Assembly (NCBI GenBank): GCA_000025185.1
Contig: CP001848.1
Coordinates: 5,970,001 to 6,002,000 of the forward strand
DNA length: 32,000 nucleotides
Direction: 5' to 3'
DNA from: Pirellula staleyi DSM 6068
GTDB lineage: Bacteria; Planctomycetota; Planctomycetia; Pirellulales; Pirellulaceae
Below, one piece after another: positions 11,047-30,707 of the stretch. The notes beneath the pieces were generated by a model that was not told the DNA's origin, ran no database searches, and was given only the letters and a program-made list of their open reading frames with translations. The number at the start of each line of letters is the position of its first letter. Within the stretch, counting starts at the first letter, position 1. The position numbers and the translations under genes were made by a program.

Positions 11047-11121
11047 GGTGGCTGAGGGGACTTGAACCCCCGACATCCAGATCCACAATCTGGCGCTCTA
11101 ACCAACTGAGCTACAGCCACC
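11047..11121 (-). tRNA. tRNA-His (anticodon GTG)
   Basis: Manually folded reverse complement: G(-1) GTGGCTG TA GCTC AGTTGGTTA GAGC G CCAGA TTGTGGA TCTGG ATGTC GGGGG TTCAAGT CCCCT CAGCCAC C. The acceptor stem is perfect. The encoded G-1 opposite C73 is the tRNA-His hallmark. CCA is not encoded. Confidence 0.9.
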
Positions 11122-18302: not shown

Positions 18303-19739
18303 ATGCTTCGACAACTTGCAATCGCTCTGTTTGGCACGGCGATCTTAGCGACCATGCTCTCTAGCGCTGCCCACGCTGCGCCGCGCAATATCGTCGTGAT
18401 TGTGGCCGACGATCTTTCGCCCGATCTCGGCTGTTATGGCAACCAAGTGATCCAGACACCGCACATCGATGCCCTGGCGCGCGAGGGGACTCGGCTGACC
18501 GATGCGATGTGCACTACCGCCAGTTGCTCGGCCAGCCGCAGTGTGATCCTGACCGGCATCCACAACCACGCCAACGCCCAGTTTGGTCACGAGCACGCTT
18601 ATCACCATTTCCGGGCCTACGACAACATCAAATCGCTCCCCGTTTTGCTCGCCGCCAAAGGCTATCGGACCGGCCGGATCGGAAAGCTACATGTCGGTCC
18701 TCCCGAAGTTTTCAAATGGGAAACCAACCTCACCGGTCCCGAGCGAAACCCGGTGCAAATGGCCGAAAATTGTCGCAAATTCATCACCGAGCAGAGCGAC
18801 AAGCCGTTCTTTTTGTACTTTGCCACCGCCGACCCCCACCGCAGCGGCGGCGTGGTGAAAGATCATCCCGAACAGCCAAACGAGTTTGGCAATCGCCCCG
18901 CAGGTTACCCCGGGGTGAAGGAAGTCACCTACAAGTCTGAAGAGGTGATTGTGCCGCCATTTTTGCCCGACAACGGAGCAGCACGTGCCGAGTTGGCGCA
19001 GTACTACCAAAGCGTATCGCGCGTCGATCAAGGGGTCGGCAAACTCGTCGCAATACTGAAAGAAGCGGGGGTGTACGACGACACGCTGATCCTCTTCACG
19101 AGCGATCATGGAATTGCGATGCCAGGTGGCAAGACCACGCTCTACGATCCTGGGATGCGAGTCCCCATGATTTTGCGAGGCCCCGGCATTCCCGCCGCGC
19201 CAGCAGGGAGTGCCGCTGGACGCTCGAGTTCGATCATGGTTTCGCATGTCGACCTCACCCCGACGCTGCTCGATTTTGCAGGGATCGATCTCGCGCAGAC
19301 CGATGTACAGGGACGTTCGTACCTCAAGGCTCTCGCCGAGGAGAAACCGGCCGCTTGGGACGAAGTGTATGCTTCGCACACGTTTCACGAGATCACGATG
19401 TACTACCCGATGCGTGTGGTGCGCGGTCGGCAGTACAAACTGATCTGGAACATCGCGGGGCCACTCCCCTTCCCGTTCGCTAGCGATTTGTGGGCGGCAC
19501 CCACTTGGCAATCAGCCTATAAGCTTGGCCCCAGCGCGCTCTATGGCAAACGAACCGTCGACAATTACATCCACCGCGACACCTTCGAGCTCTACGACAT
19601 CGAGTCTGATCCCGACGAAGTCCACAACCTCGCCGCCGATCCCAAGCACGCAGAAACTCTCGCCAAGCTCAAAGCGAAGCTCAAAACCTTCCAAGAAAAA
19701 ACCAAGGACCCTTGGATCCTGAAGTGGGAGTATGAGTAG
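18303..19739 (+). CDS. Cys-type sulfatase (N-sulfoglucosamine sulfohydrolase-like)
   Basis: The signal peptide is MLRQLAIALFGTAILATMLSSAAHA. NIVVIVADDL is present. The active-site block is CTTASCSASRSVILTG (C-x-A-x-R variant of the formylglycine motif). GKLH and TSDHG are also present. Confidence 0.9.
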   Translation: MLRQLAIALFGTAILATMLSSAAHAAPRNIVVIVADDLSPDLGCYGNQVIQTPHIDALAREGTRLTDAMCTTASCSASRSVILTGIHNHANAQFGHEHAYHHFRAYDNIKSLPVLLAAKGYRTGRIGKLHVGPPEVFKWETNLTGPERNPVQMAENCRKFITEQSDKPFFLYFATADPHRSGGVVKDHPEQPNEFGNRPAGYPGVKEVTYKSEEVIVPPFLPDNGAARAELAQYYQSVSRVDQGVGKLVAILKEAGVYDDTLILFTSDHGIAMPGGKTTLYDPGMRVPMILRGPGIPAAPAGSAAGRSSSIMVSHVDLTPTLLDFAGIDLAQTDVQGRSYLKALAEEKPAAWDEVYASHTFHEITMYYPMRVVRGRQYKLIWNIAGPLPFPFASDLWAAPTWQSAYKLGPSALYGKRTVDNYIHRDTFELYDIESDPDEVHNLAADPKHAETLAKLKAKLKTFQEKTKDPWILKWEYE

Positions 19740-19789
19740 GAAGGGGCGGGAGGCGAGGGAGGCTAGGCTATCCCATGGCGGGGCAAGAA

Positions 19790-21090
19790 TTAATTTGATT
19801 AGCTCGGCCAGCCTGTGGCGGGGTGTCGTAGGCACCAGAAGTCTACTATTCGTTGCTATAACAATAAATTCTTGTCAAATCAGTCATTGTCACGACACGG
19901 CCCGCCAAACTGTGACCATATCAACCTACAGAAACTACAAATCTATGTCATCTGACAATGAAAATAGTCGACTTGACTCTGAGTGGGTAACATTGAACGC
20001 TGTGCGAGAGCTAGTCCGAATGGCCACTAAAGGAGATAGTAGCCAAAGCACTTATGAGCGGGCCCTAGAATTTGGTGCAGTGATTTGCCCGAAGATACTT
20101 GGGCCAGATGTAAGCCTTATTAGACTACATCGCGAGAGCGACACAGCAAGAGAATTTAGGCAACGGGCAATCGCAATGACCCTAGAGTCTGGCGAGAATG
20201 TGGAGCCAGTCGAACTACTTGACCAAGCAATCAATGAACTTCGCAAGCTACAAAACACTGCCAAAGACTATAAAAACAGTACTGACGGCTTAAAGCGACG
20301 ACTTCACGAACTAGAAAAGGCCAAGAGTGAGATCGCTCCACAGGAACATTCGGAACATGAGATTATCTTTCGCGATGTTTACAATATTGAAAGAAAAGTT
20401 CCGGAAATTGGACGAGAGAAGTCTTACCGTGACTTTCGACTCCCCGACGATAACATACTTCGAATACGCGTTTTTCATCCAGACAAACCAGAGCATATAA
20501 GTGGGGCAGATATCGTCTACGAAAAACATCATCCGTCAGAAGAGAAAGCGACTATCGCGGCAATTCAGTATAAAATATGGGAAGATAAAACATTATATTT
20601 GAACGATACTCGCATGAAAGACCAGCTGGCCAAACTAAAAAGTTTCACCTGCGATAAGAACACTTGCGTTGCCAATTCTACGGACCATTCCTTTCGTTTT
20701 CCATTTTGCGCCAGCTTCCTTCGCCCCACTGACCGCCTACAACTTCCAAACCAAAAACTAATTTCGAGCGGAGAACACATTCCGATTTGCCAGATAAATG
20801 CAGTCAAATCAACTGGTCCCAAGGGCGCTGAGTGCCTAACTTACGCCAACATCAGAAAAATGTCACTTTCGCACGAAGAGTTTGAAAGCCTTTTCTCTAC
20901 AGGAAAAATTGGTTCCCGCACGCTGACATACACTGAACTGCGTGAGCTATATGAAGACATTCCTGAATTATCGAATTCCAATCGGCTCTTCATTCACGTG
21001 CAGGATTTTGAATCGGCATTCGATAGCCAGCCCACCTTTTTCGACACATGACTTCAACTAACTGATGCTCAGTGTTCTACGCAACTTTCG
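19790..21090. other. Low-GC islet (sampled lines about 35-50 % GC versus about 60-65 % in flanks) containing a single orphan gene
   Basis: The compositional break is visible by eye at about 19790 (aattaatttgattag...) and about 21090. I saw no integrase, tRNA or convincing direct repeats. Confidence 0.5.
19945..21051 (+). CDS. Hypothetical protein; helical N-terminal half plus C-terminal PD-(D/E)xK (Mrr-like D...QxK) nuclease-fold candidate
   Basis: I chose ATG 19945 (MSSDNENS...); the track extends to 19732 through GC-rich non-homologous sequence. The core is ILRIRVFHPDKPEHISGADIVYEKHHPSEEKATIAAIQYKIWE, read as strand, then a strand ending in D, then a strand with QxK. Codon usage is AT-rich. 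Confidence 0.6.
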   Translation: MSSDNENSRLDSEWVTLNAVRELVRMATKGDSSQSTYERALEFGAVICPKILGPDVSLIRLHRESDTAREFRQRAIAMTLESGENVEPVELLDQAINELRKLQNTAKDYKNSTDGLKRRLHELEKAKSEIAPQEHSEHEIIFRDVYNIERKVPEIGREKSYRDFRLPDDNILRIRVFHPDKPEHISGADIVYEKHHPSEEKATIAAIQYKIWEDKTLYLNDTRMKDQLAKLKSFTCDKNTCVANSTDHSFRFPFCASFLRPTDRLQLPNQKLISSGEHIPICQINAVKSTGPKGAECLTYANIRKMSLSHEEFESLFSTGKIGSRTLTYTELRELYEDIPELSNSNRLFIHVQDFESAFDSQPTFFDT

Positions 21091-21580
21091 CGATTGTGGA
21101 CTTCAGAAGCCTCGAGCCAGACAAGCAGCCCACGTTCTGTTCGAAGCCTTGCCCAGAACGGTAACGCTGGCAATTCATTCCTGCGACGAGAGCCTCCCAA
21201 TGCTGCGCAGCCCGACCATGTTATGACAAAATCCCTGGCCCCCGCTCCGCTCTGCCCCTTCCTCGTAGCGAACCTGCGAGTGCATTTCGGCGTCTCTAGG
21301 CGTTGCTAGCGACGACGTAATCGGAATATTGTGGCGCTCGGTGGTCGAGAAACCTGTTGCCACGAGCCGATTTACCAAGGCCGGATCGTTCTGCAGACGA
21401 TCGGCTGCTGGCAACTTGGCGAAGATAGCTCGGGCTGGGAAATCTGCGGCGAGATTCATCGCTCTGCCGTTTTCCTCGTTGCTGGCAAGCGGTATGCTCA
21501 ACCTTGGTGTGCAGTCGGGTATCGTTCGGTGTTCGCTGCACGGGGTATGTTCGGTAGCTTTCGCGCGTGATAGGCAGTTT

Positions 21581-24565: not shown

Positions 24566-24577
24566 TTCGATGGTTTT

Positions 24578-24602
24578 GTAGGGTCGGTTCCACCGGCCCT
24601 AC
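24578..24602. terminator. GC-rich hairpin between convergent carA and the last gene of the GTPase cluster (non-canonical, no U-tract)
   Basis: GTAGGGTCGG ttcca CCGGCCCTAC forms a 10-bp stem with one G.U pair. It sits in the 53-nt gap between two convergent stop codons. Confidence 0.3.
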
Positions 24603-24618
24603 ACGGTTGCTGAAATGC

Positions 24619-25359
24619 TTAATTCAGACTCGCCAGATCGGCGAGGTCGATGACGCAGACATCTGCGGTACGCCGCAACTGGCGGATGATCTGCTGCTCG
24701 CACGAGGGGACAACGTGCAGATGAAACGGACGTCGCTGCGAGATGCGAAGTCCTGTCGAGAAACTCACTTGCAGCCGCTCTGCCGGGGTGAGTAGTTCCA
24801 AAGCGCCGCTGAGAAGTCCCTCGACATCGTCGTCGGCAACCAGCACCACCTGCGCTCGACCGCGAAGCAGCGTGGCCAATTGCTCCATCGGCTCTTCCCC
24901 CCACAGCGCGCGGCATTTCGCGATCCGATCGGCGGAAGTTCCAGCCGCACTCCCCACCAGCCGAAAGCTCAGCAGCGTGTCGGGCAGATGAGGATCAACC
25001 ATCCAGCGCCCCGATGCGGCCACCGCTTCGAGGACCAGCAGCGGATGATTGTCAAACCGCATCATCCCCTCGCGCGGCAGGACGAGAATCTGCGAATAGA
25101 TCCGTCCACCTCCTCGTCCGCTGTACTCGCTCCCATTGCGGGTGGTTAGCGACAGGACAAAATGTTCGCTGCCGAGTGGGTGAAAGTTCACGCTGGTCGC
25201 TTCATGCACGTCGCTGATGAGCGAATCGTGCGCGGGGCCCCAGATCGAAAGCTCGCGCGCCATTTCGCTGGTGATACCACGACTGGCCCGAGCGAGTTGA
25301 TAGCCTTCGCGTTGCTGCTCGGCTACCGACGTAAAAATTGCCTGCTGAACCACCATCAT
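24619..25359 (-). CDS. Hypothetical 246-aa protein, putative GTPase partner (N-terminus reminiscent of GTPase-associated GAP1-N-type domains)
   Basis: It is the last gene of the four-gene cluster. The N-terminus VVQQAIFTSVAEQQREGYQLARASRGITSE resembles the Q-x-x-[YF]-T-S...G[YF]Q..A.S.G signature I recall for GTPase-associated proteins. No catalytic motif is evident. Confidence 0.6.
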   Translation of the reverse strand: MMVVQQAIFTSVAEQQREGYQLARASRGITSEMARELSIWGPAHDSLISDVHEATSVNFHPLGSEHFVLSLTTRNGSEYSGRGGGRIYSQILVLPREGMMRFDNHPLLVLEAVAASGRWMVDPHLPDTLLSFRLVGSAAGTSADRIAKCRALWGEEPMEQLATLLRGRAQVVLVADDDVEGLLSGALELLTPAERLQVSFSTGLRISQRRPFHLHVVPSCEQQIIRQLRRTADVCVIDLADLASLN

Positions 25360-25448
25360 GGTCGTCGACTCCTTGGCAAGAGTTTGGCAGGTCGTTGGAG
25401 GAAGCTAAAAAAGGGCCCAATCTTTGTGACCAGCGAGGGGCGACTGCA

Positions 25449-26354
25449 CTAGTTCGCAATTTCATCGAGCAGCCACACAAACGGCTCTGTGACGCCGCGG
25501 GGTTCGATGCGTAGCGGCACATGCACACGGCCACGACCTTCTAAACGATAGCCGCACGCCCCGGCCACGCCGGTCGCAAAAAACCGGTGTCGCTTCAGAC
25601 GTTCGCGACACTGCTGAAAGAGCCCAGGGGTATGCCGCTTTGCAAAAGCTTGCGGATCGTGGAAGCAATGTTCGCAAAGGTCGGCCTTCGTGAAGATCAG
25701 CGATACGGGCCGATTTTGCCAACCACTTTTGGGGTCGTTTTGCAACTCACACAGATAGCTGATGAGCTTCATCGTGTGAAAGTCTTCGTCGCTCTGGCCG
25801 GATTCCACTCGAGGCGCATCGATCAGCACCATCACGCCGCTGCAGCGCGACAAAAAGGCCTTCACTACCGGATAGGTATTGGGATGGTCGACCTCTTCGA
25901 GCAATGCTTCACCCGCAAGATCGGGCATGATCAGTTCGATCGGATTGCGGCGTCGGCGAAGTACTTGGCAGTGCGTCCAGTTCCAGCGATCAGGTTCGTT
26001 CGGGGTCTTCGAGGGAAATTCGCACCTGGCGAGTGATGCCATCACATGCTGCTGTAGTGCGATCGAAAATGCCCCTCGGGCGAGCAATTGCAGCGGTTCT
26101 ACTTGACGCGACAACATGTCGGTCAGCATGCCGAGATACACCGTTTTTCCCGCACCCGAAGGACCGATGCAGGCCACCATCCGGGGATGGATTTTCTGCG
26201 AAGTCGCTTGATAAGCGAGCGCCATCGGCGCTTGGCAATGCCGACAGAGTTCCGCGTCGAAATTGTTCCCGCCGCCACAGATGTAGCAGGGACAGGCCAC
26301 GGTGTACTGCGCCAGTCGATACGAATCCATCGCGAGTGTGCCAGTGGTTCTCAT
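25449..26354 (-). CDS. Zinc-ribbon-fused P-loop GTPase (TRAFAC-like)
   Basis: The N-terminal CPCYIC...CRHC provides four Cys as CxxC...CxxC. G1 is GPSGAGKT, G3 is MPDLAGE (DxxG) and G4 is FTKADL ([NT]KxD). The ATG at 26354 overlaps the upstream stop in ATGA. An alternative start is M9 at 26330. Confidence 0.75.
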   Translation of the reverse strand: MRTTGTLAMDSYRLAQYTVACPCYICGGGNNFDAELCRHCQAPMALAYQATSQKIHPRMVACIGPSGAGKTVYLGMLTDMLSRQVEPLQLLARGAFSIALQQHVMASLARCEFPSKTPNEPDRWNWTHCQVLRRRRNPIELIMPDLAGEALLEEVDHPNTYPVVKAFLSRCSGVMVLIDAPRVESGQSDEDFHTMKLISYLCELQNDPKSGWQNRPVSLIFTKADLCEHCFHDPQAFAKRHTPGLFQQCRERLKRHRFFATGVAGACGYRLEGRGRVHVPLRIEPRGVTEPFVWLLDEIAN

Positions 26355-27586
26355 ACGTTCTGTTCCTCAGGGCTTTCGATGGACAACTCGCTGCTTGCAC
26401 CACTGTCACTCGCTCCGGTGGTCACTACATCGACAAAGCCAAGCGCACAGCGAAAGCCGATATTATGTTTCCGCGCAAGCGGCCCTTCGCCACTCTGAAA
26501 CTGACAGTGCGACTGACTATCAAAATAGGTATCGAACGCTCCGCCACGAATGCTGCGAAGTGGCGAACCTGTTTCAATTTTCTGCCCTACCGGTTCGAAC
26601 GCACCAAATTGACTACTTGTCCATTCCCAAACATTACCGATCAGTTGCTGCACACCACCGACACTCGCCCCTTCGGGATGCGAATGAACAGGAACTGTGG
26701 CATCGGGTCCACTCCCCCAGAGATTGGCGAGTCGACGATCGAGCGCTTCGCCCCAAGGATAGCGGCGTTGCACCGGCACCTTCGCATCGGTGAGCACGGG
26801 CCAACTGCCAGCCTTCACCCATTCCGGATCACTAGGAAGCCGCTTTCCTGCCCAGCGGGCATAGGCCGAAGCCTCATACCAACTGATGCCAACCACCGGG
26901 TGATCTTGCTTGCCAAGCTCGTAGTGCCCGCCACTCCAAAAGCGAGGGCCAGGCTGATTGGTTTTGTCGACAAATCCGAGGACTGCTGGCCAGATCGACT
27001 CATCCCACAGCGACATTTGCTCGTAGCCACCGTCGCTCACAAACTGCTGATACTCGGCGTTGGTGACCGGATAGCGATCGAGAAAGAAACCGTCGACATG
27101 CACGAGTTTTTGCCCGCGATGCTGTTCGTCGTCAGCAAGTTCATCGAACCGGCGAGAGCGCATCATGACGGGGCCTTGTGGAACCACCGACATCGCCTCG
27201 TCGAGCGCCGACTGAGCGATTTCGATATGCCGCGCCGAGAGGCTGCTCGCAATCTGCGGGCGTAGTAAAATGGTGTAACGACCTTGCGTGAGCATCCCCA
27301 GGACGAGTTGCGAGGTTTCGTCGTCCCCAAGTTCAGCAGCGAGACGTTCCCACTTCTCGCGCGACGCGCGGGGATCGGCAGCCACCACTTTGTTCGGCGT
27401 ACTGCTAGTGGAACTTGGATGCCCACGAAATCGACGGAGCGGCTTTTGTAGCGCGAGCAGACAGAGCCCGGTTGCTGCACCGGCGGCTCCCAGCGCCCAC
27501 TGGTCCGACGTCAAACCATAGGCCAGACAGGCTGGCACCGTTGCACCGAGGGCAACGCTCGTCGCGCTGGGCAGCTTGAGAGGCAT
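26351..27586 (-). CDS. Membrane-tethered FGE-sulfatase (SUMF1/EgtB/PvdO-type) domain protein
   Basis: Two N-terminal hydrophobic segments are followed by the basic QKPLRRFRGH. The C-terminal domain reads FFLDRYPVTNAEYQQFV...HPVVGISWYEASAYARWAGKRLPSDPEW...RRYPWG...IGNVWEWT...IRGGAF...NIGFRCA. Confidence 0.85.
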   Translation of the reverse strand: MPLKLPSATSVALGATVPACLAYGLTSDQWALGAAGAATGLCLLALQKPLRRFRGHPSSTSSTPNKVVAADPRASREKWERLAAELGDDETSQLVLGMLTQGRYTILLRPQIASSLSARHIEIAQSALDEAMSVVPQGPVMMRSRRFDELADDEQHRGQKLVHVDGFFLDRYPVTNAEYQQFVSDGGYEQMSLWDESIWPAVLGFVDKTNQPGPRFWSGGHYELGKQDHPVVGISWYEASAYARWAGKRLPSDPEWVKAGSWPVLTDAKVPVQRRYPWGEALDRRLANLWGSGPDATVPVHSHPEGASVGGVQQLIGNVWEWTSSQFGAFEPVGQKIETGSPLRSIRGGAFDTYFDSQSHCQFQSGEGPLARKHNIGFRCALGFVDVVTTGASDSGASSELSIESPEEQNV

Positions 27587-27655
27587 AAGTGGGTCTCGCG
27601 AAAGTTCGATCGGCCTAAGTTGCTCGAGGATTTACGAAATCGAAAGCGGTGAAAA

Positions 27656-28969
27656 CTACTTCTTTTTATTGCGACGCTGAGCGACATCTTTTTGGAGCTT
27701 GGCAAACTGGGCCATCACGCTGCTAACGACCGGATCGCTCGCTGGAGTCGAATCCGAAGTCGACGCGGGACGTGGTGGTTCACTCGCGGGTAGCGGTGCA
27801 CTTTGAGGCCGATTTTCCGCGACGAAACGCTGATCGCCGGGCCTCGCCTCCTCGACTTTCGGTGCGGCAGTTCGACTCTCGAAGCGAGTGATCTCGAACC
27901 GCGATGGTGGCTCGTCGGCAACTCGTGCAGCAGCGGCTGCAGTGGCTGCTGTGCTCGTTCCAAAATGCGAAATCGTTCGGCCCAACTCGGCCCCGGTGAG
28001 GGTGGCATGCACTGAACTCGCCGGGATCGACATCGCTGGCGTACTCGACGATTCATAGCGCGACGCATCCTGCTGCTCGATCATGGTGCGTAGCTGCACC
28101 AGTTCGTCGCGCAGCTGAGCTCGATCGCTCTGCAAATCGCGCCGCTGATGTTCCACCGTCTCTTGCAGTTCGATTGCGCGGGCTCGCACCAAGGCAAGTT
28201 CAGCCTCGAGTGTTGCCCGCTCTTCATGCCAGGCGAGAGTCCCTTGCAGCTGCTGCGTAATTTCAGGAGGAAAGACTTCCGCCACTGGCATCGCTTGGCG
28301 TTCGGCCATGCCACTGGCCACCTGAGCACGCGTTTCAGCAAGCTCGCTGCGCAAGTGCGCCAGCTGTTGCTCCAAGGGACCGAGATTGATCGGCGCTGGC
28401 TCTTCTCGACCACTCGAACGAGCAATCTCTTGACGCAGCGAAAGAATCTCGGCCAGCAACGGTTCGAGCGCTTGATCGGGAATCTCCCCACCGCTGCTGG
28501 CTTGCATCGCCGCGCGGAGTTCCATTTCCTTGGCATGCTGCTCGCGCTCGGCTGTGGTAGCGGCCAGTTGTTCGGCCAACTGCATCCGCAACTGCTCTTC
28601 TCGCGAGAACGATTGTTCGCGGAATGCTGCGAATTCACTTCGCAAACTACGGAGTTCCGAGAGGGCATCGCTCAGCTGCGCCTCTTGCTGTTCAAGCTGA
28701 TGCGCCTGGCGACCACTTTCGACCCGCTGCTCCGACAGCTGTCGGCTGCGATCGGCCAAATGGCGTCGCGCTTCCTCCAGTTGCTCGCTGCGAAGCTGCA
28801 GTTCGTTCTCGAGCCGCTCGAGATCGCCATAAAGCGATTCGATCATGAGGTCGAACTGATGGCATTCGTTACCAAGTTCAGCGGCGACCTCTTCAAGACG
28901 ACTGGTGTGTAGCGCCAGTGGAGTTGAAGTGATCGACGTCGATGGCAATGCCTGGATGCTTGCTGTCAC
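27656..28969 (-). CDS. Long coiled-coil protein with Ser/Thr/Pro-rich linker and basic C-terminal tail
   Basis: 437 aa with a GTG start at 28969 (the alternative is the internal ATG at LMIESLY). About 280 aa are Q/E/L/R/A-rich heptad-like sequence (LERLENELQLRSEQLEEARRHLADRSRQLSEQ...). A low-complexity region follows, and the protein ends VMAQFAKLQKDVAQRRNKKK. Confidence 0.65.
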   Translation of the reverse strand: MTASIQALPSTSITSTPLALHTSRLEEVAAELGNECHQFDLMIESLYGDLERLENELQLRSEQLEEARRHLADRSRQLSEQRVESGRQAHQLEQQEAQLSDALSELRSLRSEFAAFREQSFSREEQLRMQLAEQLAATTAEREQHAKEMELRAAMQASSGGEIPDQALEPLLAEILSLRQEIARSSGREEPAPINLGPLEQQLAHLRSELAETRAQVASGMAERQAMPVAEVFPPEITQQLQGTLAWHEERATLEAELALVRARAIELQETVEHQRRDLQSDRAQLRDELVQLRTMIEQQDASRYESSSTPAMSIPASSVHATLTGAELGRTISHFGTSTAATAAAAARVADEPPSRFEITRFESRTAAPKVEEARPGDQRFVAENRPQSAPLPASEPPRPASTSDSTPASDPVVSSVMAQFAKLQKDVAQRRNKKK

Positions 28970-29545
28970 GGTCGGTTGTCCTGTGGGGGGAACTTCGAAC
29001 GAGCCGTGAGTGACAATGCGGGAAGCCGTTGCCTATCGATTCCCGATCGATACGCGCACTAACTGCACTGCCACTACTGCGGAGAGAAATTTGGCTAACC
29101 GTGATCACTTGCCGCACGACTGTCAGCAGACTTACGTCCGCCGTTCCACATTCCTTCTGCCAGCTTCCGAGGTGTGCCCCGAGAAGCTGTCAGACGGATC
29201 AGTCGGCTGCGAGCGTTTCCTCGGCGAGCCAGCGAGCGACAGCCTGTCACCCGCAACGCAAACGTAGGTCGAAAACCTCCGAGAGGCAAATCCCGATCTC
29301 AATTCAGTGCATTTCCCCCAAACCTCGCAGTTTGATGCGCAAGGGGGCCGATTTTCACTTTTTCTCCCAGAGAGGTAAAAACGTTCATACCCTGCAAGCT
29401 GTTTTCTGACAGTGACTTGCGCTTATCAGGCTATCTGGGAGGGTTAGCGAGGTCTTGCGGATCGGGAAAGTTGTGTCAAATTTACCGGCACCTGAAGCTA
29501 TCCGTTGTGGTTGCTCTCGCCATCTGTCCTACCCGACTGGAGTCA

Positions 29546-30013
29546 ATGATGACTGCCCACCTGACCGCTCGCACCATGAAATTCGTTCTCGCCATCACCG
29601 CTGTGGCTGCTCTGCTCGTTGCTGCTGGCAACGTCTCGGCCGCAACCGCTTCGCTCAACACAGCCAAGCTCGCCGGCTGTGGTTGCGAACCCGCACCTTG
29701 CGTTAAGTGCGTCCCCACCAAGGAATGCTGCGATCGCTGCATCACCTATCGCTCGCACACCCTGCTCCGTTGCAAGTTCAAGTGCAGCCCCACCGAAAAG
29801 ATCGTCCTCCAAGTGACCGATCCTTGCTGCTGCTGCTTCATCAACGTCCCTGTTTGTGTCCCTTGCTGCTGTGCCAAGGAAGCTCCTGAAGTTTGCACCC
29901 ACTGCGGTATCCTCGGTCGCACCGTCACCGAATACACCTGGTGCTGCGGCTACAAGGTGAAAGTGATCATCGATCGCTGTGGCGACGTCACCGTTCACAC
30001 CTACGGCCTGTAA
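29546..30013 (+). CDS. Secreted, extremely cysteine-rich small protein
   Basis: ATG 29546 is preceded by GGAG; the alternative is ATG 29576. The signal peptide is MKFVLAITAVAALLVAAGNVSA. All 22 Cys lie in the mature part, including DPCCCCF and VPCCCAK. A hairpin plus T6 lies about 70 nt downstream. Confidence 0.7.
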   Translation: MMTAHLTARTMKFVLAITAVAALLVAAGNVSAATASLNTAKLAGCGCEPAPCVKCVPTKECCDRCITYRSHTLLRCKFKCSPTEKIVLQVTDPCCCCFINVPVCVPCCCAKEAPEVCTHCGILGRTVTEYTWCCGYKVKVIIDRCGDVTVHTYGL

Positions 30014-30206: not shown

Positions 30207-30707
30207 GTGTCTCCCCGCAAGAAGACCGATAAACGTAAAGAATCGCGAGCAACTGCGCGCGAGATTGCCACTTCTGGCGGCCCCCCAACCGCTGGTTCGG
30301 CCAATCCCTACCAGTCCCCTGAAACGCGCACCGCGAAGCCTCGGCAACCTATGTACGAGCGGCATCGCGCCGACGCGGCACTCGGAGGCGAATCGCGCGC
30401 GTCGATCGCCGTCACGGTTGCCTGGATGACCTTCTTCCTCACCACTGTGGCCACCACACTGCTGGGCGTTGCCAACTGGGCCATCGCCGCTGGCAGCACC
30501 TTTCAGCCCAATCAGCCCACTCCCCTCCAGGTCCTTCCCGGACTATTCCTGGGGACAGCAACCCTCACGGGACTCGGCGTTTTGGGGCTCATTCCCTTGG
30601 TCTATCGCACCCGTAAAATTCCTCCCCCCAGGTCGATCACGATTGCCGCCATCGTGGCAGGCACCCTTCCCCTTGCTATCTTCACCACGTTTCTTTTGGT
30701 GAAATAG
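30207..30707 (+). CDS. Hypothetical membrane protein (basic N-terminus, 3-4 TM helices)
   Basis: GTG start at 30207 (alternative ATG 30351). Hydrophobic segments: IAVTVAWMTFFLTTVATTLLGVANWAI, LPGLFLGTATLTGLGVLGLIPLV and ITIAAIVAGTLPLAIFTTFLLV. Confidence 0.5.
   Translation: MSPRKKTDKRKESRATAREIATSGGPPTAGSANPYQSPETRTAKPRQPMYERHRADAALGGESRASIAVTVAWMTFFLTTVATTLLGVANWAIAAGSTFQPNQPTPLQVLPGLFLGTATLTGLGVLGLIPLVYRTRKIPPPRSITIAAIVAGTLPLAIFTTFLLVK

Follow-up and report, generated by a model that had tools for sequence, protein, structure and literature searches.

DO-GTPases and the GTPase-associated protein GAP1 were defined as families by Kaur, Burroughs, Iyer and Aravind (eLife 2020, PMC7159879), who placed them in "GTPase-centric" conflict systems, where the two families form the core that stays constant. 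According to these authors, GTPase and GAP1 are a co-evolving pair across phyla, whereas the FGE-sulfatase (FGS) domains of the planctomycete versions are variable effectors, which are shared with vWA-MoxR ternary systems. N2-type systems usually contain two zinc ribbons, and two GTPases, to which the family owes its name, are present in 38% of the systems. Here, we analyzed a 32,000-nucleotide stretch of the Pirellula staleyi DSM 6068 chromosome (CP001848.1, positions 5,970,001 to 6,002,000; the window), which carries a four-gene cluster on the minus strand coding for a coiled-coil protein, an FGE-like protein, a zinc-ribbon GTPase and a protein of 246 amino acids. Judged by its protein families, the module is a member of the class already described in silico, namely the planctomycete FGS form of the DO-GTPase/GAP1-N2 systems. 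We lean towards the view that this operon encodes a membrane-proximal GTPase switch. An earlier prediction made from the window alone (the original prediction) had regarded the architecture as not yet described and ranked it first in the window as a possible novel system. This claim fails because the class, including its planctomycete FGS subtype, was catalogued in 2020. The GTPase-centred operon itself is genuine, and the likeness drawn to NTPase-centred signalling or conflict modules matches the published class. New here are the vertical inheritance at clade level, the obligate pair of FGE-like protein and GTPase, the short form of GAP1 and a conserved peptide of the coiled-coil protein; based on a structure model, we tentatively add a longin/DENN/TagF-like fold of GAP1.

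Profile searches with Pfam resolved three of the four proteins, with DO-GTPase1/2, GAP1-N2, GAP1-M and FGE-sulfatase all scoring above their gathering thresholds. The GTPase matched PF19975 (DO-GTPase1) with 48.3 bits and PF19993 (DO-GTPase2) with 45.3 bits at a gathering score of 27. A collection of 5.8 billion proteins contained 1325 homologues of the GTPase. The best 120 of these were 64-96% identical and derived mainly from Pirellulaceae and from other Planctomycetia, and both Pfam families were found in every one of the 120. An exhaustive search of 1.84 billion representatives gave 308 clusters at 50% identity, a number low enough to call the subfamily compact. The zinc ribbon (CxxC...CxxC) and the GPSGAGKT, DLAGE and TKAD motifs of the original prediction are readable in the translation and persist in homologues that are as little as about 30% identical. 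Comparison of 33 diverse homologues (to 27% identity) revealed that C23, C26, C37, C40, G64, G69, K70 and D145 are invariant, with conservation of at least 90% for T71, G148, K223 and D225. N30 of the ribbon is invariant within Pirellulales. For the Walker-B glutamate E149, conservation of at least 90% holds within the same order, and several distant members have A, Q, R, K or H in its place. When the alignment profile was compared with PDB sequences, RanBP2-type zinc fingers were matched (E = 3e-4), and nothing was found beyond P-loop and RanBP2 zinc-finger fragments. An AlphaFold2 (AF2) model of the GTPase (pLDDT 75) displayed a TRAFAC fold, with Arf/Arl, MglA (6izw, 3t1o), Gtr/Rag and EF1A as fold neighbours and no decisive closest family. 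Conservation of G1, D145 and TKxD to about 30% identity, together with the TRAFAC-fold model, predicts an active GTPase.

To follow the module through related genomes, species-representative genomes were scanned for the GTPase. The scan returned 450 relatives, and the best 80 of these, all from Pirellulales, with the completely sequenced Anatilimnocola sp. NA78 among them, were taken as loci. A phmmer survey was performed on 86 loci (L001-L086), and six distant loci with a GTPase of 33-46% identity (L087-L092) were considered apart. The GTPase was present in all 86 loci, GAP1 followed it downstream in 84, and the coiled-coil protein, recognized with weak scores, preceded the FGE gene in 59. 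The FGE gene was located immediately upstream of the GTPase gene in 82 of the 86 loci, the other four being truncated by the contig end. The FGE-GTPase-GAP1 trio is thereby found in about 80 Pirellulales species genomes. As the gene order recurs in more than 80 loci of other species, the arrangement is far beyond chance. Moreover, the 4-nucleotide stop/start overlap of the FGE and GTPase genes, which implies translational coupling, was observed in 60 of 71 loci and also in the distant loci L087 and L088. The module often has the same neighbours: carA lies immediately downstream in 31 of the 86 loci, an aminotransferase gene is part of the neighbourhood in 19, and lutBC recurs on the side opposite carA.

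The four proteins diverge at different rates. Median identities to the window proteins were 62% for the GTPase, 47% for the FGE-like protein, 38% for GAP1 and 31% for the coiled-coil protein. Nevertheless, their pairwise-distance matrices correlated with r = 0.72-0.82 in a mirror-tree analysis, and none of 500 permutations reached the observed value. With a mean p-distance of 0.37, compared with 0.28 for carA, the GTPase evolves almost as slowly as this housekeeping neighbour. Gene order and protein distances taken together show, at the level of sequence comparison, that throughout Pirellulales the four genes behave as a single unit in inheritance and co-variation. The original prediction had proposed checks of co-occurrence, co-variation and G1/G3/G4 conservation, and each of them spoke for a real system.

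In the distant loci, an FGE-sulfatase gene was found directly upstream of the GTPase gene in six of six cases. In contrast, a GAP1-N2 gene followed the GTPase gene in three (L089, L090 and L092) and was missing at L087, L088 and L091. The invariable pair therefore consists of FGE-like protein and GTPase. L087 keeps the synteny with carA, the aminotransferase and the sulfatase gene, and its carA gene ends 28 nucleotides past the GTPase stop codon; GAP1 is missing at this locus, which implies that it was lost or relocated in that lineage.

Several single loci deserve mention. In the long-read metagenome-assembled genome (MAG) carrying L085, FGE and GTPase sequences form a single reading frame (L085:6762-8906). 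We rejected this as evidence for a fusion, because the native acidic tail and the ATGA stop are intact in another frame, which makes a 1-nucleotide indel artefact probable. L053 and L062 are two module loci of one MAG (DASXPQ01, SMAG_U5412) and represent either paralogous copies or a mixed bin. L086 lies on a contig labelled 'Candidatus Nealsonbacteria' that carries a typical Pirellulales-type module (60% identity) and is probably mis-binned. At L004, a PemK-type toxin gene with a small upstream open reading frame (ORF) directly follows GAP1 (L004:9722-10304), in the place taken by carA elsewhere, and a second PemK pair is located a few kb further on.

The FGE-like protein matched PF03781 (FGE-sulfatase) at 1e-43 over residues 131-381. 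Among proteins of solved structure, EgtB is its nearest relative (1e-33) through the C-terminal domain, the alignment being limited to EgtB residues 175-369. NCBIfam returned EgtB, SenA and GldK below threshold only (TIGR03440 score 123 versus a cut-off of 360). In FGEs, a CxxxxC pair after the RGG motif forms the catalytic copper site. This pair is absent from gene 2, which after "RGG" reads RGGAFDTYFDSQSHCQF...GFRCA / AFDTYFDSQSHCQF...GFRCA. The lone cysteine after 'RGG' aligns with the structural 'RC' cysteine of CalU17, and the whole domain contains two cysteines only, both at structural positions. A counterpart of the EgtB-type DinB iron-binding domain was not found in gene 2, and its N-terminal 130 residues comprise a membrane segment and a short helical region without conserved histidines. 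As both the CxxxxC pair and the DinB domain are missing, the FGE domain is most likely non-catalytic. It shares the FGE-sulfatase C-type-lectin-like fold with FGE/SUMF1, with the C-terminal domain of EgtB/OvoA and with FGS/CLec proteins such as TvpA that are diversified by diversity-generating retroelements (DGRs), and differs from the enzymes in lacking the catalytic cysteine pair and the iron domain. A DGR-diversified FGS was also considered and rejected: the window contains no template/variable repeat (TR/VR), although a template could lie elsewhere in the genome, no reverse transcriptase gene was found within 10 kb on either side, and the C-terminus is well conserved instead of hypervariable. 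Instead, gene 2 codes for a predicted N-terminal membrane tether.

Within this N-terminal region, residues 30-46 passed the Kyte-Doolittle threshold and a further segment was weak, followed by a K/R-rich stretch. The transmembrane hairpin of the original prediction is thus weak in the window protein, in which a single segment passes; two hydrophobic segments were detected in 32 of 71 orthologues. The K/R-rich stretch after the hydrophobic segment or segments, read with the positive-inside rule, leads to the prediction of a membrane-tethered FGE domain in the cytoplasm. A juxtamembrane helical region is conserved as well.

The product of gene 4, which had been assigned to no known family, matches Pfam GAP1-N2 (7e-18) and GAP1-M (2e-9). 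It ends six residues past GAP1-M and lacks the third domain, GAP1-C, and thus represents a short N2 + M form. Orthologues fall into length classes of about 250 (the clade of the window), about 308 and about 450-530 amino acids. The long forms of 450-530 amino acids (L006, L035-L086) end in a conserved helical domain with the pattern '...YLRYAL..W......LDVLCLLF'. No Pfam family matched this domain, also when the 479-amino-acid GAP1 of L006 was scanned directly, and perhaps it is a GAP1-C variant that the models do not capture. The AF2 model of the window protein (pLDDT 87, pTM 0.88) displayed an N-domain with the order bb-a-bbb-aa according to DSSP, which is longin topology, and an alpha/beta M-domain. 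Top Foldseek matches in the PDB were a 483-residue chain of the FLCN-FNIP2-Rag-Ragulator complex, TagF (twice), DENND10 and SEAC/GATOR1 chains. The loop G76-x-E78-x3-R82-x-G84 of GAP1-N2 is invariant. Its residues E78, R82 and G84 are positioned between strands 4 and 5 and are retained even in the most distant GAP1 partners, and R82 is a candidate arginine finger.

The coiled-coil protein belongs to no Pfam family, and its SMC, Rad50 and JetC coiled-coil matches in Pfam, NCBIfam and PADLOC were all sub-threshold. With its median identity of 31% across Pirellulales, it is the fastest-evolving component. A homologue search found 41 proteins, all of 290-530 amino acids and none of different architecture; the 54 orthologues range from 219 to 568 amino acids. 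Essentially all 54 share a near-invariant motif, DPV[VL]xSVMAQFxxLQKDxAxRR. This C-terminal peptide could serve for docking or, as an amphipathic helix, for targeting to the membrane. Mini-ORFs of 65-72 amino acids at the position of gene 1 in L087 and L088 were inspected; they bear no likeness to the conserved peptide and were uninformative. The labels 'ligand-binding-type' for the FGE domain and 'scaffold' for this protein, which had been given in the original prediction, are interpretations only.

Table 1. Coordinates of the four genes and of their domains, motifs and flanking signals in the window
Feature	Coordinates	Strand	Basis and remarks
Gene 1, coiled-coil protein	27656..28969	minus	ORF; 437 aa, GTG start
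Gene 2, FGE-sulfatase (FGS)-domain protein, membrane-tethered (predicted)	26351..27586	minus	ORF, 411 aa; PF03781
Gene 3, DO-GTPase (TRAFAC class)	25449..26354	minus	ORF, 301 aa; PF19975, PF19993
Gene 4, GAP1 (GTPase-associated protein 1)	24619..25359	minus	ORF, 246 aa; PF20013, PF20014
Conserved coiled-coil island of gene 1, aa ~248-300, HEERATLEAELALVRARAIELQ...	28070..28228	minus	column conservation, 54 orthologues
C-terminal peptide of gene 1, aa ~412-434, DPVVSSVMAQFAKLQKDVAQRR, then basic tail	27668..27736	minus	54 orthologues
N-terminal hydrophobic region of gene 2, aa ~9-46	27449..27562	minus	Kyte-Doolittle scan; K/R counts
FGE-sulfatase (C-type-lectin-like) domain of gene 2	26444..27196	minus	PF03781
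Stop/start overlap ATGA, genes 2/3	26351..26354	minus	read in sequence
Zinc ribbon of gene 3, aa 23-40	26235..26288	minus	C23-x2-C26-x3-N30-x6-C37-x2-C40, RanBP2-type pattern
G1/P-loop GPSGAGKT, aa 64-71	26142..26165	minus	motif read in translation
G3/Walker B DLAGE, aa 145-149	25908..25922	minus	motif read in translation
G4 TKAD, aa 222-225	25680..25691	minus	motif read in translation
GAP1-N2 domain of gene 4	24979..25350	minus	PF20013, 7.4e-18, aa 4-127
GAP1-M domain of gene 4, predicted alpha/beta	24640..24915	minus	PF20014, 2.3e-9, aa 149-240
GC-rich hairpin, convergent gap between GAP1 and carA	24577..24603	minus	fold -18.2 kcal/mol, z = -2.5; without U-tract
Intergenic region 5' of gene 1, common with divergent gene	28970..29416		447 nt

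The layout of the cluster was confirmed in the sequence as originally predicted, with four co-directional ORFs (Table 1), intergenic gaps of 69 and 89 nucleotides, the latter between GTPase and GAP1, and the ATGA overlap. The same four genes were called independently in GCA_002483025.1 (contig DLHC01000002.1), whose nucleotide sequence shares 98.6-98.8% identity with the window. Cluster and carA are convergent and separated by 53 nucleotides. The GC hairpin that had been placed at the end of the cluster lies within this gap; as it is not followed by a U-tract, it is not a canonical intrinsic terminator, and it may serve as a bidirectional transcription stop. Terminator-like sites inside the cluster were not more frequent than in shuffled sequence. 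A promoter scan that included the region upstream of the operon detected no sigma-70-like promoter, and an Rfam scan of the window revealed no riboswitch upstream of the operon, its sole match being a tRNA gene at 11047-11120 on the minus strand. Presumably, the operon promoter is located in the intergenic region 5' of gene 1.

Two small genes are encoded divergently upstream of the module (29549-30013 and 30207-30707, both on the plus strand). They code for a Cys-rich protein that begins like a signal peptide and for a small membrane protein, neither with a Pfam family. In 22 and 28 loci, the distant L087 among them, these genes are again located upstream of the module. Farther away, between the sulfatase and aminotransferase genes, an insertion of about 1.5 kb with low GC content (0.45 compared with about 0.57; ~19748-21249) replaces about 79 nucleotides of GCA_002483025.1. 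Its cargo is an orphan ORF of 439 amino acids (19732-21051, plus strand) without a match in Pfam, NCBIfam or PADLOC. As the insertion is missing from this 98.8%-identical genome, the ORF is a strain-specific accessory gene. The variable insertion is only 3.5 kb away from the GTPase module, whereas the module itself is fixed.

How does this locus compare with the published GAP1-N2 DO-GTPase systems? It resembles them in its ribbon-bearing DO-GTPase with a Walker-B glutamate, in the GAP1 N2 and M domains encoded immediately downstream, in the FGS component, in the planctomycete host and in a membrane-proximal component. In contrast to the usual two ribbons of N2-type systems, the GTPase has a single Cys4 ribbon and no second one. 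It is also the single GTPase, since no second DO-GTPase gene was found within 10 kb on either side or in the orthologous loci, and the clade lacks GAP1-C. The FNIII-repeat component is missing, too: none was detected in the four proteins, in the genes called within 10 kb on either side or in L004-L006 and L087-L091. Further differences concern the reading of the systems. Here, the FGS protein is a constant, obligate partner of the GTPase and not a variable effector, the conserved coiled-coil first gene with its invariant C-terminal peptide is unmentioned in the text of Kaur et al., and order-wide synteny and slow evolution contrast with the variability from which a conflict role was argued. 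The hallmark of variable effectors is not seen, as the same architecture is found in about 80 species, and only GAP1-C and the length of the coiled-coil protein vary. The text supplement of the eLife paper lists no planctomycete entries, and the cluster is not mentioned in the planctomycete cell-division and comparative-genomics literature.

The original prediction had also pointed to polarity switches of the MglA/MglB type. Like the Ras-like GTPase MglA and its Roadblock-fold GAP MglB of Myxococcus, the module combines a small TRAFAC GTPase with a dedicated small partner. The N-domain of this partner has the alpha-beta sandwich topology of the longin/Roadblock type, longin-type regulators are among its fold neighbours, and MglA is among the neighbours of the GTPase model. 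At the sequence level the analogy does not hold, because none of the four proteins had a Roadblock/LC7 or MglA-related Pfam match. Moreover, the GTPase differs from MglA by its length of 301 amino acids, its insertions and its zinc ribbon, the partner consists of a longin-like and an alpha/beta domain and has a GAP activity that is putative, and an obligate FGE-like membrane protein and a coiled-coil protein are added.

The layout of GAP1, a longin-like N-domain followed by an alpha/beta domain, also recalls the longin-DENN regulators FLCN-FNIP, GATOR1/SEAC Nprl2-Nprl3, DENND10 and C9orf72-SMCR8, and like them GAP1 is coupled, in this case genomically, to a small GTPase. Longin-DENN GTPase regulators use arginine fingers, of which the invariant R82 in the longin-domain loop is reminiscent. 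In contrast to these regulators, GAP1 has no d-DENN domain, and the marginal Foldseek scores (E ~1e-3, TM 0.27-0.34) do not decide between homology and convergence. The best bacterial structural match is TagF, a checkpoint protein of type VI secretion (9t0n, 6iz8; prob 0.99, TMq 0.46), which has the same layout of an N-terminal alpha+beta and a C-terminal alpha/beta domain. TagF has a groove that accommodates a short basic peptide, conserved in a membrane partner, to which the C-terminal peptide of the coiled-coil protein may be analogous. Unlike TagF, GAP1 is not accompanied by type VI secretion genes, and the two proteins have no sequence similarity.

From these data, we propose the following model of a membrane-proximal switch. 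The FGE-like protein would be anchored in the cytoplasmic membrane through its N-terminal hydrophobic segment or segments, with the lectin-fold, non-catalytic FGE domain facing the cytoplasm as a binding platform or receptor. The zinc-ribbon GTPase, made in amounts equal to the FGE-like protein, would bind to this domain. GAP1, with its longin-like and alpha/beta domains, would dock on the GTPase and set its nucleotide state in a manner comparable to MglB, FLCN-FNIP and GATOR1, possibly by means of R82 as arginine finger. Finally, a dimeric coiled-coil protein might scaffold or localize the complex via its C-terminal amphipathic, basic peptide.

A number of points weigh against this model. All protein-protein contacts in it are deduced from gene order and co-variation, and a full-text literature search found no experimental work on the DO-GTPase/GAP1 family. 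The distances of the module proteins also correlate with those of carA, more weakly (r ~0.4, n = 22-24 loci) yet significantly. As GAP1 is missing at L087, L088 and L091, it is not an obligatory regulator unless encoded elsewhere. Its Foldseek scores are marginal (E = 7e-4 to 1e-3, TM = 0.27-0.46, with one match at E <= 1e-3), its alignment profile had no match among PDB sequences, which leaves the longin/DENN/TagF likeness without support at the profile level, and TagF is not known as a GTPase regulator. The first hydrophobic segment of the FGE-like protein is weak, and some of the 71 orthologues scanned have none. As the genome scan is represented by the best 80 of 450 matches, the status of the module as 'core' is tentative. 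Last, Kaur et al., who defined the families, read these systems as conflict systems.

The reading of these authors is the strongest alternative, and we consider it possible but clearly less probable than the switch. According to it, the FGS domain would sense or bind a molecule of a phage or another invader, and the GTPase would act as a threshold switch coordinated by GAP1 and trigger the assembly of a coiled-coil or membrane complex, by which the infected cell is arrested or killed. Homology to a class interpreted in this way, with FGS listed among its effectors, speaks for such a function, as do the toxin-antitoxin genes adjoining the module at L004. Furthermore, GAP1 and the coiled-coil protein evolve fast and vary widely in length, which could reflect an arms race. 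In contrast, the module lacks an effector of the toxin or nuclease type, and a PADLOC scan of all four proteins gave nothing significant apart from coiled-coil noise. The FGS protein is constant up to its conserved C-terminus and has no DGR elements beside it. The module occupies a conserved chromosomal position among housekeeping genes in many genera and co-diverges with them, and its GTPase evolves about as slowly as carA. Its GC content is that of the surrounding sequence. The GTPase had no match in plasmid and phage collections, which is weak evidence as planctomycete mobile elements are poorly represented there. An order-wide, syntenic and slowly evolving module fits poorly with a conflict system, and its appearance is less that of a mobile defence system than that of a core module which Pirellulales inherit stably. 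Order-wide occurrence, synteny with housekeeping genes, native composition, slow evolution and the missing toxin-type effector make a conserved cellular role more likely. We therefore regard a conserved membrane function in envelope, polarity or assembly control, which is unproven, as more likely than a diversifying anti-invader role.

An enzymatic function of the FGE-like protein is improbable. As a formylglycine-generating or EgtB/OvoA-like C-S bond-forming enzyme, it would be served by the GTPase as a metal-insertion or maturation chaperone, perhaps for planctomycete sulfatases. The strong FGE-sulfatase match with EgtB and FGEs as nearest solved relatives, the tight translational coupling to the GTPase, as known from enzyme-chaperone pairs, and a nearby sulfatase gene (a few genes off in the window, and also at L001 and L087) would be in line with this. 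Both the CxxxxC copper pair and the DinB iron domain of EgtB/OvoA are missing, however, and the two structural cysteines are the only ones in the domain. The predicted tethered location in the cytoplasm is ill-suited to the maturation of exported sulfatases, and GAP1 and the coiled-coil partner would be left unexplained. Known metallochaperone GTPases belong to the SIMIBI/G3E class, whereas the DO-GTPases are TRAFAC proteins. Mere adjacency of four genes without a functional unit can be all but dismissed: the wider region with carA, aminotransferase, lutBC and divergent small genes is syntenic too, so that adjacency is weaker evidence here than in a mobile island, and some of the distant loci lack the coiled-coil gene and GAP1, but GTPase and GAP1 are a recognized co-evolving pair across phyla, the conserved ATGA overlap implies co-translation of FGE-like protein and GTPase, the correlations within the module are far above that with the flanking carA, and FGE and GTPase genes remain neighbours amid wholly different flanks (L088, L089 and L091).

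The switch model can be extended into a bolder proposal, which we consider rather unlikely. In this case, the module would be an ancestral, vertically inherited cell-biology machine of the Pirellulales and not an immune system. GTPase, longin/DENN-like GAP1, lectin-fold membrane receptor and a coiled-coil tether with an invariant docking peptide would mirror in bacteria, by homology or by convergence, the eukaryotic logic of small GTPase, longin-domain GAP/GEF and coiled-coil tether, with a role in membrane organization, polarity or budding of bacteria that divide without FtsZ in a poorly understood manner (PMC5147048, PMC6952346).

DO-GTPase/GAP1 systems are a large class known from prediction alone. 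With its compactness, its stability and an architecture that does not change, the Pirellulales clade is a good entry point for biochemistry, the more so as cultured strains, for instance Anatilimnocola sp. NA78, carry the module. It suggests that perhaps not all members of the class are conflict-system-like, and its obligate core consists of FGE-like protein and GTPase, not of GTPase and GAP1. If GAP1 is a longin-type regulator, a bacterial family would be tied to the world of MglB, longin and DENN regulators. If the conflict reading is true, an unusual immune module would be fixed throughout a bacterial order. If the module has a housekeeping function, it would be a candidate player in the membrane and division biology of planctomycetes, which is poorly understood.

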